NCBI GenBank assembly: GCA_031260805.1
Contig: JAISKV010000002.1
Span: 8,333 to 40,332 of the forward strand
Direction: 5' to 3'
Length of the DNA stretch: 32,000 nucleotides
From: Rickettsiales bacterium
GTDB lineage: Bacteria > Pseudomonadota > Alphaproteobacteria > Rs-D84
Positions 8,011 through 32,000 of the stretch are shown here, one piece after another. The notes under the pieces were generated by a model. The model did not search any database. It was not told where the DNA came from and saw only the letters and a list, made by a program, of their open reading frames with translations. The translations under genes were made by a program, and so were the position numbers. How positions within the stretch are numbered: position 1 is the first letter of the stretch; each line of letters begins with the position of its first letter.

Positions 8011-8343
8011 TCATGCTTCATACGGCCTTGGTGGCGGTTCGGAAACAACCGCTTTGGCGGCCCTGAAACAATTCGTTGTGCCGCACAGCGGCAGCAGGGA
8101 ATACTTTTTGTTCACTTCGCGGTCCAGAATTTTCTTTGCATTTGCCGGCGCGCGCATTCGTACAAAAACCCAGCCTGCATTTTCCAGCAATCTAATGCCT
8201 GTCTTGTTCAGGCGAATCTTTTTGTTCCCGTCCGGCCCGATATGATACATGTATCCGCGGTAAACAACGGCGCAATGCCGCCATCGCCGCAGGACCAGCC
8301 GCAGCAAAATCATATTTGTGTTTGGTGTGAATCCAATCAGCAT
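8011..8343 (-). CDS. Hypothetical protein
   Basis: A 110-aa ORF with no clear Shine-Dalgarno sequence and no recognisable family. It looks more protein-like than the overlapping plus-strand ORF. Confidence 0.3.
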   Translation of the reverse strand: MLIGFTPNTNMILLRLVLRRWRHCAVVYRGYMYHIGPDGNKKIRLNKTGIRLLENAGWVFVRMRAPANAKKILDREVNKKYSLLPLCGTTNCFRAAKAVVSEPPPRPYEA

Positions 8344-8418
8344 GATAAATATTTATGATTTATGAAATATGATTTATGAAAAGTATTTCCATAACTCATA
8401 AATCAGAAATCATAAACC
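8343..8418. repeat. Heptamer-armed hairpin, TGATTTA-type arm versus TCATAAA-type arm
   Basis: Period-7 arrays sit on both sides of a 16-nt loop. The 10-bp perfect stem core pairs tgatttatga (8370-8379) with tcataaatca (8396-8405). Confidence 0.7.
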
Positions 8419-8420
8419 CC

Positions 8421-8774
8421 TTAGCGTTCAATCCAATCAGACATGACGGACGCCATGGCCGCCATGGCTTCGCGCCACAGGACGGCCGCGCGGTTTTCAG
8501 CAAAAATATGCTGGTGCGGGGCGCGCTTTATGTCGCCGAATTTTTTAATAACCGCCAGATGATCGTCGCGCAATTTGCCGCACAGATACGCGCGCGTTAT
8601 TCGCGATTCAACATCTATCAGACTGCACGGGCGGCCTGAAAAATGCTTGTCCCCACAGAATCCGGTGCGCGTGGCCCGATTGTGCAGGAACCAGAACCAA
8701 ATTTCTTCGGCATCCCGAAATTTCCTGATGTTTAGCGCGATGTTTCCCACACTATTTGTTGCATAGTTTTTCAT
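8421..8774 (-). CDS. Hypothetical protein, possibly a phage/plasmid-type small regulator
   Basis: A strong AAGGAGAG Shine-Dalgarno sequence precedes the ATG at 8774. The 117-aa product begins MKNYATNSVGNIALNIRKFRDAEEIWFWFL. The family was not recognised. Confidence 0.5.
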   Translation of the reverse strand: MKNYATNSVGNIALNIRKFRDAEEIWFWFLHNRATRTGFCGDKHFSGRPCSLIDVESRITRAYLCGKLRDDHLAVIKKFGDIKRAPHQHIFAENRAAVLWREAMAAMASVMSDWIER

Positions 8775-8958
8775 TTTCTCTCTCCTTTTGTGTTTTTTCC
8801 AAATCCAACCGCATTGCGATAGGATAAAAAGCATATAAGAATATTTACTAGAATAAATACATAAATACAACCATGACTAGAATTATGAACACAAAAATAA
8901 GCCCTCGCGGCGATGAGCGGGGCCAGTCCACCTTCCCTTTTTGAGGTGGCCACTGTTT

Positions 8959-10485: not shown

Positions 10486-10513
10486 AAAAACGGCTTTACG
10501 GCCGTTTTTTTTT
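10486..10513. terminator. Bidirectional rho-independent terminator
   Basis: An A7 run, the CGGC / GCCG stem, then a T9 run that overlaps the stop codon of the 10512 gene. Confidence 0.6.
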
Positions 10514-12512
10514 ACGGTGTCGGTGTCGTCGGACGCTCCCATTCGCGGACCGCTTCAACCCCTGCGGTTTTCAAGCAGTTTTCACGCAGGCTGGCGGAAT
10601 TTGTTCCAGCCGCGCTGCTGTCCGTCACAGGCTTTAATATCTCGCTCAGCGTTACTACATTGCGGCAAGTGCTGGTATTCTTCTCAACATCGTAAGCGCA
10701 TGTTTCGGCATCCGCGTTATTCACCACCATCTGGACCGGATTTGTCGCCGGGCTGCACACCATGGTCTCAAAGCACGACGGCGACTGCGACACCTGGGCG
10801 CAGTAAGTTTTGATGCGCGCATCCATCCATGTTGTTCCGTTTGATTGGTACATTTGCGTATAGCAATCGTACAGGTCGGATATGCACTGGCCGAAATTCT
10901 CGCTGGCAGATTGATAATCGGTTAACTTCTGCGCGTCCGCTTCCTGCTTGAATTCCAATCTCTTTTGCTGCAAGGCCTGGGCGACCGCTGTGTTTTGATA
11001 AGAAATCGTCTGCGCCTGGGCTTTCAATTCTTCACCGTACAAATCACAGTCGGCATTCGCGTCCAGAACATATTTCTGCATGACTGACAGCCGCGCCTTG
11101 GCCACCGGATAGCGCAGCGTGGCGTACGGATCGCTGGTCCCGATTGATGTCCCGCTGTAATTCGCGCGCCCGGTCTGGGCATTCACGGCAGTCGTGTATC
11201 CAAAGCATGCGGCGGTTGATGTCGTGCTGGTCTGTTCGCGCAACGGCTCAAAAGTAATGCTCTTGCCATCGCTGCCGGCGGACACTGTGCTGGTATAGTT
11301 ATACGGCTTGTTGCTGGTGCAAGCCTCGTAAATTCCGTTAAAGCAAGAATCCAACACCCGTCCGCAAACATTATTCTGCGCATAGGCGAACAATTGATAT
11401 CCCCATTTTTTCGCCAACTGATCTTCACTGGTCGTGGTCAGTCCCGAAATCCCGGATATGGTATTGACATTCCCAACCAGGCTGTTGTACGCGTCCGTCC
11501 AAGAACTGGATTCAGTGCTGTACAATGTGTTTGTCGCATTCTGGACAGAATTTATGTACTCGTTCAATTGCGACATGATATCGCTGCCGGATCCGTTCAG
11601 ATCAGACAGGGTAAAGCCCAATTCGCCATTGCAATAACTGGGCGCGGTCTTATAGCCCGTGCATTGCGCGGTTCCTGTTATCTGAATATTATTCTCGCAC
11701 CATTTGTCCAGCGTCCCCGCCTGCTTTGCATTCTGATACGCGACGCAGTTCATTGTTTTTTCCGCGTCTGTCAGGCTGAACGCGCTGGATAATTCCTTGC
11801 CTTTGCTGGCGATGAACAGCGACAGTTCACCGGCCACTCTTAACAATTGTTCCTTGGCCGTGTTCAAGGCCTGCTCTGACTGAATAAAGTCTGTCGCGCG
11901 CCCGGCGCAGGTGCAGCGGCGCGCGCCCGGTTTGCGCACCGCGCAGATTTCATCCATACAGGTGTAATAACTGGTCAGACAGTTGCTGTACGCATCCGCG
12001 GAAATCAATCCGGTGTTCGGATCAATAATATTCTCGGTAATTATGCTGCCCAGGCGCAACGCGTTTGTTTGCGTGATGTTTGTGCCGGTTGGCGCGCGCA
12101 TTGCGGATCCGGTCAGCGACACCCGCGCGGGGGATGGCGTCATCATTTCGCCAGACACCGCGGTCCGCGCGGCGACGCCGCGCGGCACGCCGCTGCGCGC
12201 GGCGACGCCGCGGGCGGCAATCGGCTGGGTCGCGCGGGAAGAAACACCACGCTTTGCAACAGCCGCGGTCGGCGCCGCGACAGTGCCGCGCGCCACATTT
12301 GCAGCGCGCGCAGATTGGTTGCGCCGTGAAACTGAATTTGCTGCCGCGGCATCACCGGCGGCCGCAGTTGAAATAAATACAGGCTGCTGCACAGGATCGG
12401 CAAACACAGCGCGCATCGACAATGCGGTAAACCCGATAAAAAACGCACCGGCCAGCATGAACAAAGTCCCGGCCATCTGCATCAGCATATGGTTCCATTT
12501 GCGATTCTGCAT
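10512..12512 (-). CDS. Large secreted or membrane-anchored cysteine-rich protein of unknown function
   Basis: A GGAAGGTG Shine-Dalgarno sequence precedes the ATG at 12512. The protein has an N-terminal hydrophobic helix, an Arg/Ala-rich stretch (RGVAARSGVPRGVAART) and a roughly 520-aa region with 22 Cys. Confidence 0.7.
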   Translation of the reverse strand: MQNRKWNHMLMQMAGTLFMLAGAFFIGFTALSMRAVFADPVQQPVFISTAAAGDAAAANSVSRRNQSARAANVARGTVAAPTAAVAKRGVSSRATQPIAARGVAARSGVPRGVAARTAVSGEMMTPSPARVSLTGSAMRAPTGTNITQTNALRLGSIITENIIDPNTGLISADAYSNCLTSYYTCMDEICAVRKPGARRCTCAGRATDFIQSEQALNTAKEQLLRVAGELSLFIASKGKELSSAFSLTDAEKTMNCVAYQNAKQAGTLDKWCENNIQITGTAQCTGYKTAPSYCNGELGFTLSDLNGSGSDIMSQLNEYINSVQNATNTLYSTESSSWTDAYNSLVGNVNTISGISGLTTTSEDQLAKKWGYQLFAYAQNNVCGRVLDSCFNGIYEACTSNKPYNYTSTVSAGSDGKSITFEPLREQTSTTSTAACFGYTTAVNAQTGRANYSGTSIGTSDPYATLRYPVAKARLSVMQKYVLDANADCDLYGEELKAQAQTISYQNTAVAQALQQKRLEFKQEADAQKLTDYQSASENFGQCISDLYDCYTQMYQSNGTTWMDARIKTYCAQVSQSPSCFETMVCSPATNPVQMVVNNADAETCAYDVEKNTSTCRNVVTLSEILKPVTDSSAAGTNSASLRENCLKTAGVEAVREWERPTTPTP

Positions 12513-12576
12513 GAAAAACACCTTCCCTTTTCACCGAATTATACGAAATATGCGATTTTTTTGCAAGAGGTTAATT

Positions 12577-15599: not shown

Positions 15600-15755
15600 A
15601 CTATTTTTTCTTTCCGCCTGTATCACCAATTAATTATCATACAGCCATGATACCAGCCAGAATATCGCCAGAAACGAGAATATCTGCCATACGCCGGACC
15701 ATAAAAGAGTATTTCTTGAAAACATATTGAGTTAGTAGTTGGTAATTGGTAGTAC

Positions 15756-15847
15756 AATTAAGAATTAAGAAAGAAGAATTATGTCTTACACTCTGTCTAT
15801 TACAATGAACAAAATAATTCTTAATTCTTCTTTCTTAATTCTTAATT
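15756..15847. repeat. Heptamer-armed hairpin, AAGAATT arm versus AATTCTT arm
   Basis: The 27-nt left arm is complementary to the right arm apart from one extra 7-mer unit. The loop is 31 nt. Confidence 0.9.
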
Positions 15848-15908: not shown

Positions 15909-17162
15909 CTAAAACCTGTACATCACGCCCAGTTTCACCATCGGCATAAATTTGTAATCTTTCAGATCATGATTCAGGTCTGACAAAGCCTTGTCATAAT
16001 CTGCCCATGCATTATCAATATCGTGCTGCAACCCGTTTCCTGCGGCCCCAACCAAATCGTCCCAGTTGGTTTGCACTTCGCCGAATGCATTCTGCACATC
16101 GCTGGGCAAGTTGCTGACCCAGCCGGGCGCGGTGCCGCCGCTGAGATAGCCGACCAATCCGTCCGCCAACGCATTCCAGTCTATGTTTGTGCCATACGCG
16201 GATTCTATGGCCGATTTGGCCGCAGCATATGCCGGATTATCAATATTGTTTTTGATATAATTCGTGGTCAGATTCTTGGTCAATTCTTCCACATTCGGCT
16301 TGTCCCCTGCGGCATTCAGCAATGTTTCCCATTGCCCGCAATTCGCCCCGTCCGGACAGAATTGCGCTTGCAGTGTCGGATGCGTGATATTCTTCCGCGA
16401 CACTTTCAGCGGATCGCGCGCGAACACAACGCCGGCGTCCATATAAAACTTGAACCCGCGGAACACGCCCAAATCAAATCCGATTCCGGCATAAGGGCCT
16501 GAATAATTCCAATTCAATTTGGCCGCTATCTTGCTGCCAGCGGCGGATTGAAAGCCTATCCTGTCAGTCCCGCCCGCATCAATAAGATAACTGCCGCCGA
16601 TATCGTTCGCGATTGTATTGGTCAGACCGACCTTCATCGTGCCAAAATAGTATCCGCCGGTCAGCCGAATTCCGCCTGCAAACCAAGTGTCGCCGAACGG
16701 ATAAAAATCAATCATCGCGCCGACGCTCTGGTTTTTAATATTGAACACCGCAGTGGATCCGCCAATATCAACAAACCCGCCGTTCAGCGTCAGTTTGTCG
16801 TCATCGTCAAATGTTATCTTGTCCAACTGCGCGATATTGTTCAGATCAAAATCAATACCGGCATACCCAATGCTGGCGTCAATCTTGTGCTGATCATCCT
16901 GCAACGGCTTGATTTTTGCAGTGCCGGTCAAACCGCTGGAAAAATCAAACGCCAAACGCGCGCCAAATCTTTTGCCCCAGAACGATTCGTGCTTTTTATT
17001 CGCATACCCGACAAACGCATTCACGCTGGTAAACGGGACCACCAGCGGAACGCCGATGCCAAACTGAACGCCCTGGTACCAAGGCGACGCATCATCCGAA
17101 TTATCAGCCAGCGCGCCGGTTGTTATTGCTGCAACACAGATAAAAGGCACTAGTTTACGCAT
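15909..17162 (-). CDS. Outer-membrane beta-barrel protein of unknown function
   Basis: The signal peptide is MRKLVPFICVAAITTGALA, the body is Gly/aromatic-rich with strand patterning, and the C-terminus is KLGVMYRF. It is the last gene of the pilin-like operon. Confidence 0.7.
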   Translation of the reverse strand: MRKLVPFICVAAITTGALADNSDDASPWYQGVQFGIGVPLVVPFTSVNAFVGYANKKHESFWGKRFGARLAFDFSSGLTGTAKIKPLQDDQHKIDASIGYAGIDFDLNNIAQLDKITFDDDDKLTLNGGFVDIGGSTAVFNIKNQSVGAMIDFYPFGDTWFAGGIRLTGGYYFGTMKVGLTNTIANDIGGSYLIDAGGTDRIGFQSAAGSKIAAKLNWNYSGPYAGIGFDLGVFRGFKFYMDAGVVFARDPLKVSRKNITHPTLQAQFCPDGANCGQWETLLNAAGDKPNVEELTKNLTTNYIKNNIDNPAYAAAKSAIESAYGTNIDWNALADGLVGYLSGGTAPGWVSNLPSDVQNAFGEVQTNWDDLVGAAGNGLQHDIDNAWADYDKALSDLNHDLKDYKFMPMVKLGVMYRF

Positions 17163-17176
17163 TGGAAACCCTTATT

Positions 17177-17551
17177 TTATTTGGCTATGTTTTCAATCTT
17201 TAATTCTTCGGGCAGCGCGTAATCATGCGCGCCTTTATCCGCAGGTTTCAGACTGCCCGCGCCCCATACATTCGTACAATCGCGCGAAAAGAACGGGTAA
17301 ATCGTGGAATCCGTGTCAATATAAGCAATCTTGGTTATATTGCCGTCTTCAACCGCATTCGGCAACGACTTGTCGCCGACAGGCAAGATATACAGCAGAT
17401 TTGTCTGGCACGCATACCCGTTCGCATTAACAGTTGACCAGTCAACTTTGGTTATATCAGCCTCGGTAAAAAATTTCTCTTGATTCGCGGTGCCGCCGTA
17501 TGTGCATGCGCCCAAGCCCAGAATTGCCAAAATCTTCAATGCGTTTTTCAT
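17177..17551 (-). CDS. Lipoprotein, TRL-like family
   Basis: Lipobox ILGLGAC. The stretch ACQTNLLYILPVGDKSLPNAVEDGNITKIAYIDTD...CTNVWG resembles the TRL-like protein signature. An AAGGAAG Shine-Dalgarno sequence is present. Confidence 0.55.
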   Translation of the reverse strand: MKNALKILAILGLGACTYGGTANQEKFFTEADITKVDWSTVNANGYACQTNLLYILPVGDKSLPNAVEDGNITKIAYIDTDSTIYPFFSRDCTNVWGAGSLKPADKGAHDYALPEELKIENIAK

Positions 17552-17566
17552 TAAATGCTTCCTTTG

Positions 17567-18499
17567 TTAGTTATCTAAAATATCCCGCAACAGACGCATG
17601 TCGTCCGGCAGCGGCGCTTTGATCTTAATCTTAATTCCTTTGACCGGATGTGTCAATTCCAAATATTGCGCATGCAGCATTTGTTCGTTATTATTTTTCA
17701 CAAAGTCCAATAATTCCGAATCCTTGATCGTCCCGATTTTATCCCGGCCGTACACAGGATCGCAAATAATCGGAAATCCGTGCGCTGACAAATGAACGCG
17801 GATCTGATGCGTGCGGCCAGTGAACAAGGTGCACTTCAACTCGCTGGCGTTCTTGCGCGGCCATGCGGCCATAACATCGGCATGCGTCTTGGCCGGCCGG
17901 CCGCCGATTTTTACAATTGTCATTTTCTGCCGGTTTTTCGCGCTGCGCCCGATGTTTCCGGTTATATCCGCGCCCTCCCATTGCGGAACACCCCAGCACA
18001 GGCAGACATACTTGCGCACCAGATCATGCGCGGCAAAAGTCTTGGTCAAGGCGCGGTGCGCCGCGTCGGTCTTGGCAAAAATAACCGCGCCGCTGGTCCC
18101 CTTGTCAATGCGATGCACGACGCCCGGACGATTTGCATCGCCCAGCGCGGACAAACCGCAATGCGCCAGGACCATCTGCACCAGCGTGCCGTCCGGATTC
18201 CCGGCTGCCGGATACATGACTACCCCGCGCGGCTTGTTAACCGCGATAATGTCTTCGTCTTCATACAGAATGTCCAGGTCCGATGCCTGGGGGTCAAGGG
18301 TCGTGGTCTGTTGTTCCGGAATTTCAATACGGAACACATCGCCATCATGAACCTTGCCCGCGGGCTTGTATTTCCCGTCTATCATTTTCTGGATTTCGCT
18401 GCGCGAAAACTCTGGCATTCTGGACGCCAGAAATTTATCAACCCGCAGCCCCGCGTCTGATTCGCACGCATTAAAAATTCTTTTATTTTCCGAATTCAT
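17567..18499 (-). CDS. rluD: 23S rRNA pseudouridine synthase, RluD subfamily of the RluA family
   Basis: An S4-like N-terminus (LRVDKFLA) is followed by the catalytic motif HRIDKGTSG and GRTHQIRVHL. Confidence 0.9.
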   Translation of the reverse strand: MNSENKRIFNACESDAGLRVDKFLASRMPEFSRSEIQKMIDGKYKPAGKVHDGDVFRIEIPEQQTTTLDPQASDLDILYEDEDIIAVNKPRGVVMYPAAGNPDGTLVQMVLAHCGLSALGDANRPGVVHRIDKGTSGAVIFAKTDAAHRALTKTFAAHDLVRKYVCLCWGVPQWEGADITGNIGRSAKNRQKMTIVKIGGRPAKTHADVMAAWPRKNASELKCTLFTGRTHQIRVHLSAHGFPIICDPVYGRDKIGTIKDSELLDFVKNNNEQMLHAQYLELTHPVKGIKIKIKAPLPDDMRLLRDILDN

Positions 18500-18929
18500 C
18501 CCAATCCGGCCCGCGTTCGCAGTTTGATAAGTTCACAATCATGTCCCGGCCGATTTTGCAGGTCAGTATTCCGGTCGTCGTATTCTGGTATGTTTCGGAT
18601 CCTGCTTCGCGCCAGGCCAGTTTAATCTCGGTCGGTTTGGCCAGGCACACGATTCTGAAATACGCATCCCGGTCCTTGACCGGATCAATCCACGCGCGCA
18701 CATCTTCCGACTGGCCATAGCATGGAAAGCCATCCAGATAGTACAATTCCCATCCCAATTTTCCGATATTTTGCCCGCCGCGCTTTACAGGAATTTGATA
18801 TTCGCGCAGATGCAGCCCGCTGACCCGCTCCCAATCGCTGCTGGTGGAAAAAATGCTGGGGCGCGGCGCCGCCAAAAGTGAAACGGGAAACGAGAAAAGT
18901 AAAAATATTGAAAAAACCATTTTTTTCAT
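18483..18929 (-). CDS. Secreted/periplasmic protein of unknown function
   Basis: The signal peptide is MKKMVFSIFLLFSFPVSLLA. The gene overlaps both neighbours, by ATGA at its start and by 17 nt with rluD. Confidence 0.6.
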   Translation of the reverse strand: MKKMVFSIFLLFSFPVSLLAAPRPSIFSTSSDWERVSGLHLREYQIPVKRGGQNIGKLGWELYYLDGFPCYGQSEDVRAWIDPVKDRDAYFRIVCLAKPTEIKLAWREAGSETYQNTTTGILTCKIGRDMIVNLSNCERGPDWDEFGK

Positions 18930-19390
18930 TTTGCAAACCCCACGGTTATTTTCTTTGCGTCCGAAACGGTCAACTCTGATGAAAAATACACCACGGCGCC
19001 CGAATCAATAACAGCCGCGTTCGGAATTACGCGCGCAGTCTTGATAACCGCGCCATTGCCGTCCCGAATGCTGACCATCAGATCCGGCGCGCCGAACAAC
19101 TTTTCCGTATTATTCACTATCCTGCCGGAAACAATTATGCCGCCGGCCGTCGCGACCGGCCTGTCCGTTATAATTTCCAAAGCGTCTTTCTTTGCGTCCG
19201 TCCGCAGAATCGCAACCGCTGAAAACAAGACGGCTGCCAGCAGCGCGGTTATCGCCGCCAGCAGTTTCAGCCACCTGCCCCCGCCGCTGCCGGACCCCGC
19301 GCGCCATACCGCGCCGCAGCAGGCGCATTTGACATTGCCGCCGCCGGGAATTTTATACTGCGTTTTGCAAAAAGGACACTTTATAACCAT
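18926..19390 (-). CDS. MJ0042-type zinc-ribbon membrane protein with a DUF3426-like periplasmic domain
   Basis: MVIKCPFCKTQYKIPGGGNVKCACCGAVW supplies CxxC...CxxC. It is followed by one TM helix and a beta-rich C-terminal domain. Confidence 0.7.
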   Translation of the reverse strand: MVIKCPFCKTQYKIPGGGNVKCACCGAVWRAGSGSGGGRWLKLLAAITALLAAVLFSAVAILRTDAKKDALEIITDRPVATAGGIIVSGRIVNNTEKLFGAPDLMVSIRDGNGAVIKTARVIPNAAVIDSGAVVYFSSELTVSDAKKITVGFAK

Positions 19391-19399
19391 GCGCCTATG

Positions 19400-20689
19400 T
19401 TAATCTTTTAAGTTCAATTGTTCAAATTTTATTTCAACAATTCTTTGCATCTGGCGCAGCCCGTTGATATAGTCCGCGACCGTCGCGTTTGCATTCACCG
19501 ACAATGCGCGCATGATATTGTAAACTTCCGAATCATTGCCGGATTCGCCGGAAACGGCAAACCGCGACAAATCGCGCAGCAGATTCAGCCGCATGTCGGA
19601 AAACACCGCGATTGAATTCTTTACATCCCAGTAATAAGACGAATCCTGGCTGTCTTGCAGCCAGGTAGAGATATAGATGCGCGGCGTCAGCGTTCCCGAA
19701 AATCCGACATTCGCGATATCCGCGGTTATCTTGCCGCCCAGCATGTCCAGATTCTGGCGCACCGTTATCTGCGGCGCGCGCACGCCGTCATTGAAATACA
19801 GCCCTGATAAATTCAAGGATCCGGCCCATAATTCCTTGGCATGAACCGCGGAAAAATTTGCAGTCTTTTCCAACGACAGCGTTCCGACAGTTATGCTCTT
19901 GCCGTCGCTGGTCATGTTTCCGTTCACCGTCGCTTCGCCGCTTATCTTCAACGCCGCGTCCAGATTGGCGCGCATGGTGAAACTCAACTTGTCCGCGCCG
20001 ATTTCCGCCGCGCCCAGCGTATCTGAAATAACAGTATTTTTCGCAATCATCAGGTCCGCGTTTTTCAGGTCATGGCCGCCGATTGACAAATCGGATTTCA
20101 TTGTCGCGGCATCCGCAGGCGCTCCGGGCAGCCGCTGGATATATTCGTTCTTCTTGCGCACGCTACCGCTGCGAACCGAAACGCCGCTGCCCATTTCGCC
20201 GTAATTTGCGTTCCAAGTCCCGAATTGCCCGCTGATATTCCCGCGGTCCGAATATCCGAATCCAAAGCCGCCCGATTCCGCAATCTGACGCGTGCGATAC
20301 GGGCTGGCCCCGCCGTCCGGAAACACCAGCACGCCTTGCAGCACGCTGCGGCCGCCGCGCTCGCGCGTTTTCATAATTCTGATCTGGATTTTCGCGTCAT
20401 TATCAAAGTATTCTGGAAATCCGAAATCCTGCAAATCCATCACCGATACGCGGACTATGTTCTTGCCGGACACCTGCAACAGTTTTTCCGAATTTGCTGT
20501 TATGTATTTTTCCAGCGCGCGGCCGGCCAATTCCATGTTGCCTGCAATCGCCAGGTTTTCCGCGCGGCGCAGCCGCTCGCTCTGGAACTTAACTAAAAAA
20601 GGCAGCAGCATTGCAGCCAGCGCCACCGACAGCAGCAATTCTGTCAGCATCGCGCCGCGCTGGAAAGATTTATTGTGCAATCGGTTCAT
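19400..20689 (-). CDS. Large prepilin-like protein C, TadE/PilV-like N-terminus
   Basis: The leader MNRLHNKSFQRG is followed by AMLTELLLSVALAAMLLPF, giving the G|xxxxE class III signal pattern. An internal motif reads MKSDLSIGGHDLKNA, and the C-terminal half is repetitive and beta-rich. Confidence 0.55.
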   Translation of the reverse strand: MNRLHNKSFQRGAMLTELLLSVALAAMLLPFLVKFQSERLRRAENLAIAGNMELAGRALEKYITANSEKLLQVSGKNIVRVSVMDLQDFGFPEYFDNDAKIQIRIMKTRERGGRSVLQGVLVFPDGGASPYRTRQIAESGGFGFGYSDRGNISGQFGTWNANYGEMGSGVSVRSGSVRKKNEYIQRLPGAPADAATMKSDLSIGGHDLKNADLMIAKNTVISDTLGAAEIGADKLSFTMRANLDAALKISGEATVNGNMTSDGKSITVGTLSLEKTANFSAVHAKELWAGSLNLSGLYFNDGVRAPQITVRQNLDMLGGKITADIANVGFSGTLTPRIYISTWLQDSQDSSYYWDVKNSIAVFSDMRLNLLRDLSRFAVSGESGNDSEVYNIMRALSVNANATVADYINGLRQMQRIVEIKFEQLNLKD

Positions 20690-21920
20690 TTTGTTCCAAA
20701 TCTCTCCATCCGGATGCAGTTATTTTATCAAACCGCGCCGTATCCACCCTCAACAAGCCGCCCATTTCACCGCCCGATTGACGCAGGACCAGCGATTTTA
20801 ATTTCGGATAACTGCTGGTCGGGAAAGACCAGTTGCCCAGTTTTATCGGCGTGTACGCGCTGGACGCAATAAGTTCGCTGGAAACCACCATGCCGAATCC
20901 GGCGGCAAAATACAACTCTGTCGCGAACAAGTACGGCGTGTAAACCGAATGCACGGACATCCCGGCGATTCCTGAAATCGTGCGCGCGGCTCCGGACTTT
21001 ACCGACAGATTGCCCGACACATTCAACTTTTCAGAAACAACCGTTTTATCAGAAATAACGCTGCCGCCGGAAGACCAATTTCCGTTTAATCCCGTGCCTT
21101 GGAACTTCTTCGCATAAATGTTGCGCAGCCCCGTCGTGTCGCCGCGCACGCGAATTATGCCGATAGACGCGCCGTCGACCCCGATATCCGCGCCGTTGTT
21201 AAAGTACGCGATGTCCGCAATCAAATTTTCGGCCGCCGCGAAATTCGCGGTTGCAGATGCCGATTCCAAGACCTTGCCCGCCGCCGCCGCGATGTCGTAC
21301 AAGTCAAATCCGCCCAGGTTGAAATCGCGCAGCATATTGTTCTGGCCCCTGCTGGCCGTGCGGTACAGGTATTTTTCATTGTCGTTGTTCTTCAAGTCCA
21401 GACGCACGCGGTACACTATGTCGCCGCTGGCGAAATCATCACTCTGCACGCCCCACGAAGAATACGAATCGTACGCGATTCCGTTTTCATTCACCAGCCC
21501 TGCGTCAAATCCGATATTCTTTACAATATCCGCATTGCGCATCAGCGACGAATCATTTACATGAAACGCTGAATACGCATCTATGATTTCGGAATCCGTA
21601 ATCGTGTACTTGTCTATGTAAACCGCGTACGGCGCGGCCGCGTTTCCGGACAGCCCCGCGATATCCGCATCATCCAGCCTGAATTGAATATTTTTGTTCC
21701 AACCGGACGCATTCATCCTGATAAAATTCAGCATCGGATCGCGAAAGTCCGCAATCTGCTTTGCAATCGCAATGTCCGCAATCCGGCGCGTCATTTCCGA
21801 AATATGAATGTACGCCAGCGGCGCCAGCGCCGCGACCACGGCCATGGCCAGCAATGTTTCCAGCAAAGATTCGCCGCGCTGCTGATTTATCCGCAATTTG
21901 ATTTCCCCTGCACCAGGCAC
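20670..21920 (-). CDS. Large prepilin-like protein B
   Basis: ...INQQRG is followed by ESLLETLLAMAVVAALAPL. An internal motif reads NMLRDFNLGGFDLYDI. The track start is a GTG; a TTG at 21896 preceded by AGGGGA would give an 8-aa leader. Confidence 0.55.
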   Translation of the reverse strand: MPGAGEIKLRINQQRGESLLETLLAMAVVAALAPLAYIHISEMTRRIADIAIAKQIADFRDPMLNFIRMNASGWNKNIQFRLDDADIAGLSGNAAAPYAVYIDKYTITDSEIIDAYSAFHVNDSSLMRNADIVKNIGFDAGLVNENGIAYDSYSSWGVQSDDFASGDIVYRVRLDLKNNDNEKYLYRTASRGQNNMLRDFNLGGFDLYDIAAAAGKVLESASATANFAAAENLIADIAYFNNGADIGVDGASIGIIRVRGDTTGLRNIYAKKFQGTGLNGNWSSGGSVISDKTVVSEKLNVSGNLSVKSGAARTISGIAGMSVHSVYTPYLFATELYFAAGFGMVVSSELIASSAYTPIKLGNWSFPTSSYPKLKSLVLRQSGGEMGGLLRVDTARFDKITASGWRDLEQNEPIAQ

Positions 21921-23317
21921 TTTTTTATATTTATCCGCTGTTCCAGCCGCTGCCAGTACACATATTGGCAGATTATATTCTGCGCCACGGATTTCGCGTT
22001 ATACGATATGTCGGTCAAATCATAAATCACATTTTTGCAGTCCGTTGTTTTTCCCGTGCTGTCGGACGCGCTGTGAATTATCTTCAATGCGGAAGAGTCC
22101 AGATTTTCCAAGATAACATCATCAAACACTGAAACGCCGGCCGGCCGTATGTCCATGATAACCGGGCCTGTGCCGCCGGCCGACAAGGAACTGGAAATCT
22201 GATCGCGCAGCGTTATGTGGGCGGCGGCGACATAGTCCGCCTCGATCCCGGTCTTGGCACTGTAAGACATCCCGTCGTCGGATACAAAAACCTCCTGACC
22301 GCGCGCGGCGTTTATCAGTCCGCCGATTTCCAACGCAGAAACGCCCAGGCTGATATTTTCGGTTGCCATGCTGCCGCCGATATTCCACTTTTCCGGCCCG
22401 TAAAATCCTGCGCGCCCGGCCGACATGGATAAATCGTAAATGGAAAAAACATCCGTTTCTATCGCACCGCTGCTGCCGAATTGCGATATCGTCGCGGCGG
22501 TCATGCGCTGCGCGACAGTGCCGTTTTTTAGAATCCCCAGCGCGCTGCCGTCTGTATCAGACAAGAAAATTGCGCGGTTCAGAGACAAATGCGCAATCTT
22601 ATTTTTAATCTTTCTGCCTTCTTCCGTACCGGCCAGCGTCAGCGAAGAAATCATCGCGCTGTCAGCGGATAAATTCGCCGCCCACATAGTCTTGATATTT
22701 CTGACATCAAATTCAGACATGTCCAGATCCGCCAGAAACGCATCGTCGGCCGGATTTTTGGAATATGACTGAACGCGCTCTGTAAACTCGTTTTCTAGCG
22801 GGATGCGGACCAGGAAAGTCTTTGGCGACGGACGCCATCCGAACGCCGATACATCGGCCGCCCATCCGCCGCCGAACGCGGTTATGTCAAAGCCTGTGCC
22901 GGACGCGGCCCAGAATCCGACCCGCGCCGCCAGTTCGCGCAATTTTAATGGCGATAAATTCCCGCGTTCTATGACCAGATACGCGTCAATCGCGCCGGGA
23001 TCGCGCAAGACGACCAGCGATATTTTCTGGTCCAGCGGGGTGTTTCCACGAAATCCAATCGGCAATCCGAACGGTTCCAGCGCGTCTGACATGGCCAATC
23101 CGGACAAAGTGGTTATGCCGAATGGCAGCAATTCCGATTCTTCCCGAATGTATAACTTTGCCGCATTTGCAGCCAAATTTATAGTGTCCGCTGTCGCGCC
23201 AAATTCAACCCGCGCGGAATAATCGGCGATTTTCCGCGTCATCATCGGCATAAACGCAACCATCAGCGATACGGCCAGCAGCGCTTGCAGTAAAAAATTT
23301 CCAGATTGGCTTCTCAT
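21887..23317 (-). CDS. Large prepilin-like protein A
   Basis: The preferred start MRSQSG is followed by NFLLQALLAVSLMVAFMPMM, with Gln at +5. An internal motif reads LADLDMSEFDVRNI. The track ORF extends to 23383, across a divergent promoter. Confidence 0.5.
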   Translation of the reverse strand: MRSQSGNFLLQALLAVSLMVAFMPMMTRKIADYSARVEFGATADTINLAANAAKLYIREESELLPFGITTLSGLAMSDALEPFGLPIGFRGNTPLDQKISLVVLRDPGAIDAYLVIERGNLSPLKLRELAARVGFWAASGTGFDITAFGGGWAADVSAFGWRPSPKTFLVRIPLENEFTERVQSYSKNPADDAFLADLDMSEFDVRNIKTMWAANLSADSAMISSLTLAGTEEGRKIKNKIAHLSLNRAIFLSDTDGSALGILKNGTVAQRMTAATISQFGSSGAIETDVFSIYDLSMSAGRAGFYGPEKWNIGGSMATENISLGVSALEIGGLINAARGQEVFVSDDGMSYSAKTGIEADYVAAAHITLRDQISSSLSAGGTGPVIMDIRPAGVSVFDDVILENLDSSALKIIHSASDSTGKTTDCKNVIYDLTDISYNAKSVAQNIICQYVYWQRLEQRINIKKCLVQGKSNCG

Positions 23318-23350
23318 TCCCAGAGCAATCATAGAAAATATAAAAAATAG

Positions 23351-23379
23351 TTGCAATCTGTTTTTACTGGGATTATACT
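23351..23379 (+). promoter_or_regulatory. Candidate promoter of the 23427 gene
   Basis: TTGCAA, a 17-nt spacer, then TATACT. Confidence 0.4.
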
Positions 23380-23426
23380 GCAAGGGTACTTTTATTATTT
23401 ACCATACTTTTACAATCGGATAATTC

Positions 23427-23723: not shown

Positions 23724-23734
23724 ATGCGCCATTT

Positions 23735-23843
23735 TAGTTGTTAGTTATTAATTATTAGTTATTATTCTTTTGTTTGTGGTGGCGGAATTATCGCAGCGCG
23801 CACAATGGTATAATAACTAATAATTAACAATTAATAACTATTA
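23735..23843. repeat. TAATAAC-armed MITE/RPE-like element, copy 4 (inverted relative to copy 1)
   Basis: The reverse complement of 23767-23808 matches 1125-1166 at 41 of 42 positions. It is flanked by GTTATTA / TAATAAC arrays. Confidence 0.9.
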
Positions 23844-23870
23844 AAAAATCGGGCGATGCCCGATTTTTTA
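23844..23870. terminator. Bidirectional rho-independent terminator
   Basis: Sequence AAAAAATCGGGC-GAT-GCCCGATTTTTT. The T-run overlaps the mreB stop codon. Confidence 0.8.
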
Positions 23871-24917
23871 ATACAGCGTGTGCAGGACATGCTTGTACTT
23901 GTCAATATTATACAGGATATTTCCGCTGCCGTTGGCGACGCAGTACAACGGCTCGTCCACAACGAACACAGGCAGATTTGTCGCCTGGCGAATCGCGACA
24001 TCCAAATCGCGCAGCAAACTGCCCCCGCCGGTCATCGCAATTCCGTAATCCACGATATCCGCGGTTAACTCTGGCGGCGTTATCTCCAAAGTGCTCTGAA
24101 TCAAACTGATAATCCGCGCGACCGTCTGCGTCATTGCATCCGCCGTGTTTGATTCGGTAATTTCAATTTCACGCGGCATGCCGGAAATCAAATCGCGCCC
24201 CTTGACCTTGACCCGCAGTTCCGCCGCCTTGTCCCGCGGCGGCAGCGCGCATCCGATTTCTTTCTTTACATTTTCCGCGGTTACTTCGCCAATCAGCAGA
24301 TTTTTATTCTTGCGCACCCATTCAATAATATCGCGGTTCATTTGATCCCCGGCGGTTCGTATAGCATTGGAATACACAACGCCGCCCAGCGATATGACCG
24401 ATATTTCCGTGGTCCCGCCGCCAATATCCAAAACCATTGACCCGACCGGCTTTTCAATGGGCAGCCCCGCGCCAATCGCCGCCGCGGTTGATTCTTCAAC
24501 AATGTAAACCTTGCGCGCGCCTGCGCTGTCGGCCGCTTCCTGAATTGCGCGCCGTTCCACCGGCGTAGCGCACGACGGCACGCAGATAACAATCAGCGGC
24601 GCGGTCAGCATGCTGCGCTTGTGAATCTTGCGAATGAAATGACGGATCATTTCTTCGGCAACCTCAAAATCCGCGATGACACCGTCTTGCAGCGGGCGCA
24701 CCGCGCGAATTGTGCCTGGCGTGCGGCCCAGCATTCCGCGCGCTTCATCGCCGACGGCCAGGATTTCCTTTTTTCCAATCAAACGGTTTTCCAAAATTGC
24801 GACCACGGACGGCTCGTTCAACACAATGCCCTGATCCTTGACATAAATTAGAGTATTCGCCGTGCCCAGGTCAATTGCAATATCCGCGGAAAAGAATTTC
24901 ATCAGCCAGTTGTACAT
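23868..24917 (-). CDS. mreB: Rod-shape-determining actin homologue MreB
   Basis: Matches FSADIAIDLGTANTLIYV, DIGGGTTE and the actin-fold motifs. The start is taken at MYNWLMKFF. The track start at 25022 is an extension into the heptamer hairpin. Confidence 0.93.
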   Translation of the reverse strand: MYNWLMKFFSADIAIDLGTANTLIYVKDQGIVLNEPSVVAILENRLIGKKEILAVGDEARGMLGRTPGTIRAVRPLQDGVIADFEVAEEMIRHFIRKIHKRSMLTAPLIVICVPSCATPVERRAIQEAADSAGARKVYIVEESTAAAIGAGLPIEKPVGSMVLDIGGGTTEISVISLGGVVYSNAIRTAGDQMNRDIIEWVRKNKNLLIGEVTAENVKKEIGCALPPRDKAAELRVKVKGRDLISGMPREIEITESNTADAMTQTVARIISLIQSTLEITPPELTADIVDYGIAMTGGGSLLRDLDVAIRQATNLPVFVVDEPLYCVANGSGNILYNIDKYKHVLHTLY

Positions 24918-27661: not shown

Positions 27662-28504
27662 TTACCAGCGGCGGTGCTGCCACAGCCATTGCGAAGGATC
27701 GCGGCGGATTATGCGCTCAATAACATCATTGATATACTGCATATTCCGCTTGTCCGTGTCCGCGGGCATTATCAATTCTTCTGCGACCAGTTCATGCCGG
27801 ATCCCTCCGATTCTCCGGTCGTACATCATCAGTATCGGGCATCCGAATTTATCCGCCAACTTTAACGCGCCGATCGGGGTTTTGGCCGGCCGGCCGAAAA
27901 AGTTCGCGATGACCCCGTTGTATTTAAGGTCCGCGGCGACCGCCATTTTCTCGTTATTCAGGAAAGCGCCCATCATTGCCCGCGAATCAGACGCCGCGAT
28001 AAAATGGCTGTTTCGCGCCGCCGTTCCGAATATGCGGCGCAGCAATTTGTCCGACAGCGGATTGTGCGGCTGTTTGTAAACAATATTAAACCTGGCGTTA
28101 TTGCAGAAAGGCAGCGTGTACAGCCCCATCAGGCCATAATGCATGTGGCACACCAGCAGCCTGTCAAACGAATTTGCGCGGTCAAATAATTCCTGATTTT
28201 TTATCAACACCAGTTTCCCGATGTTGCGCGCGTACTTTTTCAGATGCAGGCTCTCTATCTCGGCCCGGCCCCAGTTGTTCCACAGCCGTTTATAGAATTC
28301 AGGAGTATCGCATTCCGGGATCGCCGCGCGGATATTATCTGCGGTTATTTTCTGCCGCTTTTTCAAGACCAGTCGCCCCAGTTCGCCCAGTTTCCCGCCA
28401 ATTGCAGACGCCACGCGCAGCGGCATCATGCCGAACAGCCCCATATACAGTTGGATTCCCAGCCATTCCAGCGGGTATTGAATATTTTTTTTTATTTTTG
28501 CCAT
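27662..28504 (-). CDS. Lipid A biosynthesis (Kdo2-lipid IVA) acyltransferase, LpxL/HtrB family
   Basis: An N-terminal membrane helix with YPLEWLGIQLY, a central CHMHYGLMG (HX4-type acyltransferase box) and a C-terminal PSQWLWQHRRW match this family. Confidence 0.75.
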   Translation of the reverse strand: MAKIKKNIQYPLEWLGIQLYMGLFGMMPLRVASAIGGKLGELGRLVLKKRQKITADNIRAAIPECDTPEFYKRLWNNWGRAEIESLHLKKYARNIGKLVLIKNQELFDRANSFDRLLVCHMHYGLMGLYTLPFCNNARFNIVYKQPHNPLSDKLLRRIFGTAARNSHFIAASDSRAMMGAFLNNEKMAVAADLKYNGVIANFFGRPAKTPIGALKLADKFGCPILMMYDRRIGGIRHELVAEELIMPADTDKRNMQYINDVIERIIRRDPSQWLWQHRRW

Positions 28505-30306
28505 TTGTGCCAGATCCGGTTTGTGTTTGTGTAATGTATAGCACCATTATCGTAAATTGTAAAGCCCCCGGATAAAATCCGGGCCGTGCATCCGGGATAA
28601 TTAATGCGCAGGTATGATACTATGAAATCCCGGTTCGCGCACCAATCGGCCAGGTTTTCGGCCAGCGGCATGAATTTCTGGGTGTAAACCAGATTTAATT
28701 CAGGCACCGCGCAGACGCCGCTTGAACACTTTAATTTTCCGTTTGCGGAAGACGGATTCTGAAAATTCGCCATCTTCCACGAATCAAACGCAAAGTAATG
28801 CCCGCTGGACTTTGTCATGTTGAATTGCAGATTTCCGTCATTTGCGCGGTATGCGATTAATTCATTGTCAATCGTTGAATAAAAAACAGGCCGCGGCGCG
28901 ACAAACGGCCCAACCAGCCCAACCCCCAGCCCAGCGCAAGATACAATGATTTTCACCTTTTTATTTTTAATCGCGACCAGCCCCAACAAAGCGATAATCA
29001 TAACGCAGAAACAAACCCGCGGCAGCAGCGGAAACTGGATAACCGCATGCGGCCACGCGGAAATGCCTTGCGCCAGACCCAGCAGCCAGTCATAAACCGC
29101 TGACGCCCACGCCGTCTGGCCCAGCATTATCAGCGGCATTATAGCAAATGAAAATACTGGCAGAAAAATCAGATTCCCAATCAACGAATAAATCGGAAAA
29201 ACATGAAAGTGCCAGATGATGAACGGCGCGGTGAACAGCGTGCAAATCAAACTGGTCTGGATTAAAATTTTTATCCAATGCCATGCCTTGTGCAGCACGG
29301 TTCTTTTCCGGTACTCAGATTTCCCGAAAAACCAAAGCATGCCGAAAATCGCCGCAAAGGATAGTTGGAATCCAGGCTCTACCACATAATGCGGATTGAC
29401 CAGCAGCAGCGCGCAGAATACCATGACTGCGCCGCGCATGTTCAGCAGGCTGCGCCCCAGGATAAACGCGGCGAACACCAATGCGGTCATCAGGAACGCC
29501 CGCTGCGTCGCGACATCGCCGCCGGACAGCACTAGATAAAACGCCAATCCGGCCAGGGCCAGAATCATTGCCGGATAACGCGCCGGCATCCTGCGCGTCA
29601 TGCGCGAAATGCTGCGGAACACGAAATACAGCACCGCGAACAGCCAGCCGCCGACCAGCGTCATATGAAATCCGCTGATTGAAAACACATGCGAAACGCC
29701 GACAGCCTTCCATGCCGCATTGTCAGATTCCGGCAGCGCGTTTTTATATCCCAAAACCAAGGTGTCAAACAATGGCGATTGAAACCGGTTATGCAAATAC
29801 TCGCGCAGGTTGATTTTTGCATTATTATTTGCGCCAGTTATTTCAGTTATAAATCCGGTGCCGGAAATTCCATGAAAGTACGCCCATTCGCTGAAATCAT
29901 ACCCGCCGGATAAATCGGGCAGATTTGGCGGAAACACCGTGCCGCGCGCGACAATTTCCGCGCCGATTGGCGGCGCGGATACTTCGCGGCCCAGCGTCAG
30001 GCGGAAATCATTTATGAAAATTCGCACCTTGTCCGCGGCGTAATCAATATTCTTCACAACGCCGGTTATTTCCGTATCGCGCATGACGCCGCGAATCCGG
30101 GGCATTCCGAAATTCTGAGACCATCCGCAGGCATAGCAGAATGAAAAGACAAAAATTAAAAGACCGGATATGAACTTTGCCTTGCGCCATGCAGTCGCAT
30201 TGAACAAAGCCAGCGCCGCGATTATGAAGGGATACGCCAAATGCGGCTCTACCGGCAGTATGAAATAAGCGGCGATTCCAATAGAAAAAGCGATTACAGC
30301 CAGCAT
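28492..30306 (-). CDS. comEC: ComEC/Rec2-family DNA internalisation channel, with no recognisable C-terminal metallo-beta-lactamase domain
   Basis: A DUF4131-like N-terminus (ITGVVKNIDY...GGYDFSEWAYFHGISGTGFI) is followed by the competence-domain motif VGVSHVFSISGFHMTLVGG. There is no HxHxDH motif. Confidence 0.85.
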   Translation of the reverse strand: MLAVIAFSIGIAAYFILPVEPHLAYPFIIAALALFNATAWRKAKFISGLLIFVFSFCYACGWSQNFGMPRIRGVMRDTEITGVVKNIDYAADKVRIFINDFRLTLGREVSAPPIGAEIVARGTVFPPNLPDLSGGYDFSEWAYFHGISGTGFITEITGANNNAKINLREYLHNRFQSPLFDTLVLGYKNALPESDNAAWKAVGVSHVFSISGFHMTLVGGWLFAVLYFVFRSISRMTRRMPARYPAMILALAGLAFYLVLSGGDVATQRAFLMTALVFAAFILGRSLLNMRGAVMVFCALLLVNPHYVVEPGFQLSFAAIFGMLWFFGKSEYRKRTVLHKAWHWIKILIQTSLICTLFTAPFIIWHFHVFPIYSLIGNLIFLPVFSFAIMPLIMLGQTAWASAVYDWLLGLAQGISAWPHAVIQFPLLPRVCFCVMIIALLGLVAIKNKKVKIIVSCAGLGVGLVGPFVAPRPVFYSTIDNELIAYRANDGNLQFNMTKSSGHYFAFDSWKMANFQNPSSANGKLKCSSGVCAVPELNLVYTQKFMPLAENLADWCANRDFIVSYLRINYPGCTARILSGGFTIYDNGAIHYTNTNRIWHKWQK

Positions 30307-30986: not shown

Positions 30987-32000
30987 TTATGGCGCACTGT
31001 ATGCATCAATGACCGCCATCCAAGAAAAACTCGTCCCGTCATAATGCAATACGCAATTACTGCACGCCCCGCTTGGCTTTGGAATATAAGCCCCCATCGC
31101 GCTATTAATCGCGCCATCCATAGTTTGCTTGTTTACAGCATCATGATCATTTATCGGATCTGCGACCGCCGTTATCGCGCGATATAATTCAAAATTTTCA
31201 TCACCAACAGCCACAGTGTTCGCCCGTATTGTCGCACTGCTGGCCCCCAAAGCGATAGAATTAGGATAAAATGCGTATGACTCGTTGCCAATAGCAATTG
31301 ATTTTGCAGAATTTTGCATTACGCCCGCGTTCGCACCCAGCGCCACCGAATAGACAGAACTCGCACTTGATCCGGAACCTATCGCGATACCATATGATGA
31401 ATTATTGACAACGGCATATTCACCAATCGCAACGCCTTCGGTTCCATTAGCCTGAGAATATCCGCCAACCGCGACACCACCACCCTTATCTACCCTGGCA
31501 TACGAACCGACGGCAACCCCAAAATCCCCACCACTGACAATGGAACCAGAGCCAATTGCAGTACCGGCTACAAAAAAATCCCCATTAACTGTGCCGCCTA
31601 TTTGGATATCAGCAGATGTTTCTGGTCCATTACCCATAAAATCTTGAACTCTGTAAATCAATTTAGTTGCAGCCAATTGAGTCATTGCACCGTCCGTATT
31701 GGCACCAATAGAATTATATAATTGACTGGTTGTCAGCAAATTACTCGGCTTGTCTGTCAAATCATTGTAAGAGCCGCTTGTCGCGACAGCCGCCAAAGAT
31801 TCTGTTATTGCCGCGACAGCGCCATCAACATACGATCTGGCCGCCAGATCGCCAACATCGGCTGATAATGAATTTATTTGCACAAAGCCAATCAAGATAT
31901 ATATAAAATATTGACAAAACTTAACTTTGTCGTGCGGGAGGGGGGGGGTAAAAATTCGGTTTCTACACTCATAGAAACATTTTATAAAAATACCCGGCAT
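30987..32000 (-). CDS. Secreted fibre/adhesin with a tail-fibre-like N-terminal motif and YadA-head (Hep_Hag-like) repeats; the 5' end is at or beyond the window edge
   Basis: LAARSYVDGAV...SGSYNDLTDKP is followed by repeats of the form GVAVGSYA / GVAIGEYA / YGIAIGSG / YSVALGAN / KSIAIGNE / NSIALGAS / NTVAVGD. A neck-like YRAITAVADPINDHDAVNKQTMD follows. A C9 tract covers codons 18-21. Confidence 0.7.
   Translation of the reverse strand: MPGIFIKCFYECRNRIFTPPLPHDKVKFCQYFIYILIGFVQINSLSADVGDLAARSYVDGAVAAITESLAAVATSGSYNDLTDKPSNLLTTSQLYNSIGANTDGAMTQLAATKLIYRVQDFMGNGPETSADIQIGGTVNGDFFVAGTAIGSGSIVSGGDFGVAVGSYARVDKGGGVAVGGYSQANGTEGVAIGEYAVVNNSSYGIAIGSGSSASSVYSVALGANAGVMQNSAKSIAIGNESYAFYPNSIALGASSATIRANTVAVGDENFELYRAITAVADPINDHDAVNKQTMDGAINSAMGAYIPKPSGACSNCVLHYDGTSFSWMAVIDAYSAP
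31940..31948. repeat. G9 (coding-strand C9) homopolymer in the 5' coding region of the YadA-head fibre gene
   Basis: Nine consecutive G lie between the only in-frame ATG and the signal-peptide-like segment. Confidence 0.95.

Follow-up and report, generated by a model that had tools for sequence, protein, structure and literature searches.

Analysis of a 32,000-nucleotide chromosomal stretch from a Rickettsiales bacterium of the order Rs-D84 (contig JAISKV010000002.1, positions 8,333 to 40,332, hereafter the window) revealed a tandem array of three large prepilin-like proteins, designated P1, P2 and P3. These proteins are best explained as type IV minor pilins that share an ancestor with PilV, the tip adhesin of IncI-type conjugative type IVb pili. 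With modest confidence, we favor a reading in which a chromosomally encoded, type IVb-like pilus attaches the bacterium to partner cells and P1, P2 and P3 make up its tip or initiation complex.

All three proteins begin with a class III signal, as an earlier note made from the DNA sequence alone had read them: QRG/AMLTE (P3), QRG/ESLLE (P2) and QSG/NFLLQ (P1), the slash following the conserved Gly. A six-frame scan of the window for G-x4-(E/Q) followed by a hydrophobic run in pilin layout returned the P1, P2 and P3 open reading frames (ORFs) only; one further, internal match of the G-x4-(E/Q) scan fell in a Yip1-like membrane protein. Furthermore, the signal is conserved among orthologues. In family alignments built from orthologues (n=120 for P1, 40, taken from related loci, for P2 and 27 for P3), E17 (position +5) of P3 is invariant and its Gly at -1 is invariant or nearly so, G16 of P2 is invariant and E21 nearly invariant, and G6-N7-F8-L9-L10-Q11 of P1 is nearly invariant, Gln at +5 being a fixed trait of that family. 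The C-terminal cysteines C427, C450, C467 and C475 of P1 are also invariant across the alignment. Generic family models were of little help: P2 scored 14.9 bits with N_methyl, under the cutoff, and a search of Pfam and NCBIfam with the window copies of P1, P2 and P3 returned no match above cutoff. The same signal had been described as possibly TadE-like, an identity that we abandoned, as no TadE, TadG or other Tad family match was found in Pfam at E<=1 for any of the three.

Pairwise comparisons agreed with the proposal that the three proteins are paralogues. BLASTP between the window proteins gave E-values of 1e-11 (P1-P3), 8e-6 (P2-P3) and 6e-4 (P1-P2), and hhalign comparison of the family alignments gave 1.4e-16 over 289 columns for P3-P1 and 5.2e-20 over 276 columns for P2-P3. 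Mutual identity is only about 20-25%, and these alignments indicate a paralogy that is real but old.

The likeness to PilV that the earlier note had pointed out was borne out for the N-terminal constant region. When aligned by hhalign with five annotated plasmid PilV proteins, the P3 family matched at a probability of 99.2% (E 3.5e-19), P2 98.2% (E 3.1e-14, over 241 columns) and P1 96.0% (E 4.5e-9). These alignments extend from the N-terminal helix through the globular domain and include the YLYR...M..DMGGxDLxN motif of PilV; the mid-protein motif common to P1, P2 and P3, already noticed in the first reading of the sequence, is the same element and aligns with the PilV block DYLYRxAVPGxPELNRMxTAIDMGGNDLNN. 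Shufflon_N (PF04917), the corresponding Pfam model, did not reach its threshold with the window proteins. Two P3 orthologues gave 27.0 and 24.4 bits for a cutoff of 27.5, with residues 37-243 aligned to positions 13-232 of the 324-position profile, and this alignment extends well past the hydrophobic helix. Furthermore, a tblastn search of 72,556 plasmids with a P3 orthologue yielded 34 weak matches, and all 20 of those listed lie in pilV or pilV2 genes. A HMMER search of 1.84 billion representative proteins with the P3 profile retrieved 517 proteins at E<=1e-3; Shufflon_N is present in 15 of 59 distant full-length matches, with a best E-value of 1.1e-105. For P1, 556 homologues were found. 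Homology therefore places P1, P2 and P3 in the PilV superfamily. The protein family is already known, and PGAP names some of the orthologues PilV. Current annotations of the three families are nevertheless inconsistent, ranging from hypothetical protein to 'GspH family' or 'PilV'.

Many of the proteins matched by the P3 profile (P0271, P0272, P0295, P0300 and P0305-P0323) are about 1000-1600 amino acids long and come from unknown organisms; their N-terminal 230-290 residues or so resemble PilV. They appear to represent giant pilins of the PilV type, a larger branch that is still uncharacterised.

With PilV of the IncI1 and IncI2 thin (type IVb) pili, as in R64 and TP114, P1, P2 and P3 share the class III signal, a length of about 430 residues, about 230 homologous N-terminal residues with the motif given above and, in relatives of the host, pairing with a PilS-type major pilin. 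They differ from it in several respects. PilV is plasmid-borne, whereas the P1-P3 genes are chromosomal. A single pilV gene has invertible 3' segments, rearranged in a shufflon that comprises the Rci recombinase and sfx repeats, whereas here there are three fixed, deeply diverged paralogues and neither Rci nor sfx was found. The C-termini of PilV vary, whereas those of P1, P2 and P3 are conserved. The pilN-pilU machinery adjoins pilV, whereas none lies beside P1-P3. Finally, P1 has Gln at +5, and the window proteins fall under the Pfam threshold.

To place the cluster in its lineage, relatives of P1 were sought at one genome per species, and 296 stretches encode one. The best 80 of these 296 belong to metagenome-assembled genomes named Alphaproteobacteria, Rickettsiales or Candidatus Enterousia, which originate from termite, ruminant, horse, chicken, mouse and human gut and include chromosomes of 716,531 and 958,618 bp. 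Enterousia is assigned to the order Rs-D84, whose genomes are mostly smaller than 1 Mb and lack amino-acid, nucleotide and lipid synthesis, and a partner-dependent lifestyle has been proposed for it (PMC12306168). We then compared 86 loci, namely the window and 85 relatives. P1, P2 and P3 occur together and in fixed order in 85 to 86 of the 86 loci, in different species. The order DUF4167-like gene (on the opposite strand), P1, P2, P3, zinc-ribbon gene, S148 (a small secreted protein) and RluD is kept in 84 of the 86, contig ends cutting the exceptions. The earlier note had described an operon of eight genes. All eight ORFs are present where it had placed them; because of the order shared across the 86 loci, however, the conserved unit comprises six co-directional genes plus the divergent 98-amino-acid gene, not eight. 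The last two genes, encoding a TRL-like lipoprotein and a 417-amino-acid protein, stand outside the conserved order.

Conservation within each family is equally high in the N-terminal and C-terminal halves (0.55-0.77 column identity), whereas BLASTP comparison of the paralogues shows strong divergence of their C-terminal halves. This pattern bears on whether the three proteins could be alternative tip adhesins, each pilus carrying one of them or its homotrimer, so that three specificities would provide a hard-wired substitute for a shufflon. The C-terminus of PilV sets target specificity, and PilV binds surface glycans of the recipient cell (PMC9045228); the homology of all three proteins to PilV and the divergence of their C-terminal halves speak for such a role. 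However, all three are kept in the same order in every genome, neither copy-number variation nor C-terminal hypervariability occurs within any of the three families, and Gln at +5 in P1 alone points to a distinct structural position. In addition, no sfx-like multi-copy repeats were found between positions 15500 and 24000, which led us to reject a shufflon, and no recombinase was found among the window ORFs scanned. We consider alternative adhesins improbable. The proposal of variant adhesins in place of a shufflon thus gives way to three separate orthologous lineages, as the family alignments indicate, and the co-presence of all three together with their conserved C-termini suggests that they are obligate partners rather than interchangeable adhesin variants.

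The reading of P1, P2 and P3 as tip components of a pilus is strengthened by a neighboring gene that the earlier note did not mention. When IncI pilus proteins of a Serratia plasmid were searched with phmmer against the 7,588 ORFs of the 86 loci, the PilS query alone matched, to a protein of 152 amino acids. Its gene lies within 10 kb in 71 of the 86 loci, about 2.5 kb from P1 and on the other strand, in the order dnaX, pilin, OmpA-like lipoprotein, Skp; it follows dnaX immediately and shares a base with the dnaX stop. Such a placement of a pilin gene in a dnaX operon is unusual. The protein reads MKxESG/RSLIExIGVLAI..., with the Gly, the Glu at +5 and two Cys invariant. It scores 22.8 bits with N_methyl (cutoff 21.2) in L003. 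PF08805, the PilS model, gives 22.5 (cutoff 22) for the L056 protein and 15.9-16.3 for two further members, and a PDB search with the family profile matched TcpA, a type IVb pilin (E 0.003). By these signatures, it qualifies as a putative PilS-type type IVb major pilin. No Flp-type pilin was found in the window or in the 86 loci. On plasmids, pilV genes adjoin pilS, an ATPase or an A24 peptidase gene, pilS being directly beside pilV. The PilS-PilV pairing of IncI pili therefore recurs in Rs-D84 relatives.

Structure prediction is consistent with this reading for the N-terminal region. In the AlphaFold2 model of P1 (120 sequences), residues 10-175 have predicted local distance difference test (pLDDT) values of 82-94 and form a helix (residues 8-63, 56 residues) followed by a four- to five-stranded sheet and two short helices, a predicted fold that fits a pilin domain, as expected. 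Confidence is also good for residues 400-476, where a long helix closes the model, and residues 178-400 are unreliable. The model of P3 (27 sequences) was poor, with a mean pLDDT of 58. Searched against the PDB, profiles of the P1, P2, P3 and PilV families either matched nothing or matched short pilins in their N-terminal helix only, so that P1-P3 and PilV have no solved relative by sequence.

Two groups of known tip complexes suggest how P1, P2 and P3 could work. CofB of the CFA/III pilus of enterotoxigenic Escherichia coli and TcpB of the toxin-coregulated pilus of Vibrio cholerae are large bimodular type IVb minor pilins whose trimeric tip initiates assembly and anchors a secreted protein of the same operon (PMC6048534; PMC5207764, PMC9565799). 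P1-P3 resemble them in size and may have the same succession of an N-terminal pilin domain and beta-rich C-terminal domains, and S148 would correspond to the small secreted protein that docks on the tip trimer in those systems. CofB and TcpB are encoded by single genes and form homotrimers, whereas here there are three paralogues, which would form a heterotrimer; no sequence similarity was detected between the P1-P3 families and the CofB or TcpB chains in the PDB. The GspK-GspI-GspJ complex of type II secretion systems and the PilX/PilW/PilV/FimU complex of type IVa pili, like the complex proposed for P1-P3, are heteromeric tips in which tandem genes provide distinct minor pilins. In both, the subunit on top (GspK or PilX type) has no Glu at +5, and P1 has Gln there. 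These complexes belong to other families, giving no significant match past the N-terminal helix in hidden Markov model searches, and they differ from P1-P3, which are all large and mutual paralogues. By analogy, three paralogues of which one lacks Glu at +5 would fit a heterotrimeric version of the CofB/TcpB tip.

In the mechanism that we propose, the N-terminal helix would insert each of P1, P2 and P3 in the inner membrane, and a prepilin peptidase encoded elsewhere in the genome would cut after the conserved Gly. One copy of each would then associate through parallel N-terminal helices into a heteromeric tip or initiation complex, with P1 as the presumed top-most subunit because Gln replaces Glu at +5 and no charge partner is needed above it. 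This complex would prime polymerisation of the PilS-like major pilin and would reach the distal end of the pilus, where the beta-rich, Cys-containing C-terminal domains could bind a conserved surface ligand on the partner cell. The co-translated zinc-ribbon protein, with its cytoplasmic zinc ribbon, transmembrane helix and periplasmic domain, could position or license assembly; S148 may be a periplasmic or tip-bound accessory, and RluD a passenger. The kinship with PilV, the class III signals, the strict joint presence and order of the six genes and the linked PilS-like pilin are observed; cleavage, association into a heteromer, location at the tip and a role in adhesion are inferred.

Several observations weigh against a tip complex of a functional pilus. 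The window encodes neither an ATPase of the T2SS-E type nor a platform protein, an A24 peptidase or a secretin, and the same four components are absent within 10 kb in 86 of 86 loci, as assessed by phmmer and by scans for Walker-A and GxGD motifs, a result that concerns these neighborhoods rather than whole genomes. The IncI queries PilQ, PilR, PilU, PilN-like, PilO, PilP and PilM had no match among the 7,588 ORFs. The lack of an ATPase, platform or secretin nearby, first noticed for the window, therefore holds throughout. The one published survey of Rs-D84 genomes mentions type IV pilus genes in a different lineage, UBA9783, and not in Rs-D84 (PMC12306168). The window contains no major pilin, and the closest termite-gut relatives are also devoid of the 152-amino-acid pilin within reach. 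Residues at +1 (N, E/A and A/G, and R in the small pilin) are atypical for substrates of classical prepilin peptidases. Finally, the middle parts of the P1 and P3 models have pLDDT values below 50, and a Foldseek search of the PDB with the P1 model gave nothing significant, the best match being a chain of a type II secretion pseudopilus (E 0.95). The missing machinery near the cluster is the main uncertainty of the pilus reading, and we infer that its components are encoded elsewhere in the genome.

The same absence could mean that P1, P2 and P3 are relics of a lost pilus, now signal-anchored envelope proteins that are held in the inner membrane by their N-terminal helix and form a periplasmic complex with the zinc-ribbon protein and S148 and serve the envelope or cell polarity, with neither filament nor processing. 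The lack of machinery in all 86 neighborhoods, the lack of reported type IV pilus genes in Rs-D84 (PMC12306168) and the position of the cluster among the housekeeping genes dnaX, rluD, mreB and der would suit this explanation, as would the polarity role that ZitP, a zinc-ribbon protein of Caulobacter crescentus, exerts with PopZ independently of pili (PMC5182063). We nevertheless find it doubtful, as Gly at -1 and Glu at +5 stay invariant over hundreds of species; these residues are hallmarks of cleavage and filament packing and are unexpected in plain anchors. Furthermore, the cluster is accompanied by a conserved small major pilin of typical kind, whose C-terminal region is disulphide-bonded, and genomes smaller than 1 Mb rarely retain four useless pilin features. 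It is also conceivable, though we think it unlikely, that Rs-D84 and Candidatus Enterousia lack all canonical type IV filament components, yet maintain, under strong selection on the cleavage and packing residues, four pilin-type proteins from which an unrecognised machine builds a fibre or complex. The builder may be, for example, the type IV secretion system of these genomes, or the zinc-ribbon protein and S148 with unknown partners. If so, the product could be an attachment or feeding organelle of partner-dependent bacteria.

Another explanation, to which we assign a very low probability, is that P1, P2 and P3 function as minor pseudopilins, either in type II secretion or in a DNA-uptake pseudopilus, serving protein export or DNA import rather than adhesion. 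The NCBI record for the exact P3 sequence is named 'type II secretion system GspH family protein', the non-significant best Foldseek match is a type II secretion pseudopilus, ComEC is encoded 8 kb away (28492-30306), and the lineage is devoid of nucleotide biosynthesis (PMC12306168). However, none of the GspH, GspI, GspJ and GspK models scores past the N-terminal helix of P1-P3. P3 had no GspH match at E<=1, and the best score, that of P2 with PRK10506, was 16 bits for a cutoff of 158 and covered the N-terminal helix only. ComEC is not a conserved neighbor of the cluster across the loci, which led us to dismiss a linkage between the two, and no GspD, GspE or GspF is encoded nearby. Pseudopilins measure 120-330 amino acids, whereas P1-P3 measure 416-476 and have clear homology to PilV.

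Coordinates of the cluster and of associated features are given below.

Features of the PilV-like pilin cluster and of its surroundings. Positions refer to the window unless a related locus (L001, L003) is named; a slash in a leader follows the conserved Gly.
Feature	Position	Strand	Remarks
P1, PilV-like large pilin	21887..23317	(-)	476 aa (amino acids) from ATG 23317; ORF reaches TTG 23383 (498 aa); leader MRSQSG/NFLLQ
P2, PilV-like large pilin	20670..21920	(-)	416 aa; leader ...NQQRG/ESLLE
P3, PilV-like large pilin, paralogue nearest PilV	19400..20689	(-)	429 aa; leader ...FQRG/AMLTE
ZitP-like bitopic zinc-ribbon protein	18926..19390	(-)	154 aa
S148, small secreted protein	18483..18929	(-)	148 aa; signal peptide; four conserved Cys
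RluD-type 23S rRNA pseudouridine synthase	17567..18499	(-)	TIGR00005 E 2.6e-74; PseudoU_synth_2 E 4.4e-26
TRL-like lipoprotein	17177..17551	(-)	124 aa; PF13146 TRL E 1.7e-13
417-aa secreted protein	15909..17162	(-)	signal peptide; C-terminus ...VMYRF; possible outer-membrane protein
DUF4167-like basic protein, divergent from P1	23427..23723	(+)	98 aa; PF13763 E 8.5e-5, 23.2 bits (cutoff 25)
Promoter-like site TTGCAA-17-TATGAT, 5' of P1 ATG 23317	23328..23356	(-)	consensus scan only; 9/12 positions matched
PilS-like pilin	L001:4848-5306; L003:4779-5237	(-)	plus 69 other loci

The eight ORFs of the minus strand run head to tail from 23383 to 15909, at coordinates that match those of the earlier note. 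P1 and P2 overlap by 34 nucleotides (nt) and P2 and P3 by 20 nt, a 9-nt gap separates P3 from the zinc-ribbon gene, the latter overlaps S148 by 4 nt, and S148 overlaps RluD by 17 nt; gaps of 15 and 14 nt follow between RluD and TRL and between TRL and the 417-amino-acid gene, respectively. P1 had been given 498 amino acids, which is the length of its ORF. The true start is most likely ATG 23317 rather than TTG 23383, because NCBI calls a protein of 476 amino acids, orthologues of about 451 amino acids have a six-residue leader, and the promoter-like site lies inside the longer ORF. P1 and the divergent DUF4167-like gene have a control region of about 110 nt in common. Long AT-rich inverted repeats flank the eight-gene block at 15751-15847 and 23727-23873; their arms measure 33 nt (91% complementarity) and 39 nt (85%), and a perfect 16-bp hairpin follows mreB (23839-23873). 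These elements are probably bidirectional terminators.

The zinc-ribbon protein, whose gene is present in 84 of the 86 loci, carries a CxxC...CxxC zinc ribbon at its N-terminus, followed by a single transmembrane helix and, at the C-terminal end, a beta-rich domain of the FxLYD/DUF3426 type. As for DUF3426, which the earlier note had named, the signal is weak in the window protein and was seen only in orthologues. Scores of the window protein are all below cutoff (Zn_ribbon_4 E 5e-4, 20.3 bits for 30.3; MJ0042_CXXC 20.2 for 20.9; FxLYD 20.5 for 23); its L003 orthologue passes with FxLYD (31.1 for 23) and scores 28.2 with Zn_ribbon_4 and 21.9 bits with DUF3426 (cutoff 27.7). This predicted domain plan, which the earlier note did not relate to ZitP, fits that of the Caulobacter protein, composed of a zinc ribbon, a transmembrane helix and a periplasmic DUF3426 that is needed for biogenesis of the type IVc (Cpa) pilus (PMC5182063). 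The two share this predicted three-part architecture, and the window gene is translationally coupled to pilin genes. They differ in length, ZitP having 311 amino acids versus 154 here, and domain scores of the window protein lie at or under cutoffs; the likeness is so far one of architecture.

S148, also present in 84 of the 86 loci, has the strongly conserved motifs SIFSTSxDW and LYYLDGFPCYG and no Pfam or NCBIfam match. RluD, the last member of the six-gene unit, is likewise found in 84 loci and is probably a housekeeping passenger. The earlier note had linked the pilins to an outer-membrane protein of their own, a link that dissolved in the comparison. Among the 86 loci, the TRL lipoprotein family occurs in the window only, where its gene is co-directional with the conserved unit and outside it, and the 417-amino-acid family occurs in 10, at varying positions and on either strand. 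Nor does any model back the outer-membrane barrel proposed for the latter, which has no family match above cutoff; it has a signal peptide and the terminal residues ...YRF.

On the other side of P1, the DUF4167-like gene is found directly upstream and on the opposite strand in 84 to 85 of the 86 loci. Its product is almost invariant across 85 loci (MQNKKNQSSVGxMIQRCHKWRQKRKQY...), and in most relatives the gene heads the dnaX-pilin operon, an arrangement in which the protein may regulate both operons. In 66 loci, RluD is followed by a secreted, Cys-rich protein of about 1046 amino acids with no known domain (e.g., L001:13404-16586, + strand). We rejected it as a PilV-type protein, as it has neither a PilV-like domain nor a counterpart in the window. 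A Cys-rich protein of 669 amino acids in the window (10512-12521, - strand) is similar in style, and jackhmmer gave no match between them.

Other features of the window were also recorded. A ComEC-type competence channel is encoded at 28492-30306 (- strand; PF03772 E 1.2e-49), and a gene for a lipid A acyltransferase comes next; DNA uptake may matter for a lineage devoid of nucleotide synthesis. The stretch at 4560-8870 has a lower GC content (0.43-0.46), encodes a Bro-N protein that matches a phage family very strongly (phrog_15286 E 9.5e-119) and a small protein with tail-fibre-like matches, contains a perfect (AG)20 repeat at 5982-6021, and may be a prophage remnant. At 30987-32000 (- strand), a protein running off the window end has YadA-head-like repeats (PF05658 E 3.4e-9) and is a possible trimeric autotransporter adhesin. 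A 360-amino-acid polytopic membrane protein (7-1089, + strand), encoded just upstream of mraY-ftsW-murG, has no family match and resembles VirB6/TrbL by eye only. In a relative, L003:1-1734 encodes a VirD4/TraG coupling protein, which indicates that type IV secretion genes exist in these genomes.

In the literature searched, we found no description of three fixed PilV-type paralogues, of their chromosomal location in a reduced-genome lineage, of coupling to a ZitP-like gene or of separation from the assembly machinery. With this cluster, the PilV adhesin family, which is plasmid-borne and diversified by shufflons, would for the first time be seen as a fixed trio on a chromosome, and such a trio suggests a heterotrimeric version of the trimeric type IVb tip initiator. 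Furthermore, the ZitP-like link would extend beyond Caulobacter a pilus-positioning factor known only from that genus. Rs-D84 and Candidatus Enterousia, Alphaproteobacteria that have not been cultured, are widespread in the gut of humans, ruminants, birds and termites and are considered to live off other cells (PMC12306168). The strictly conserved PilV-type trio and the PilS-like pilin together make an obvious candidate for the organelle by which these bacteria attach to a partner.

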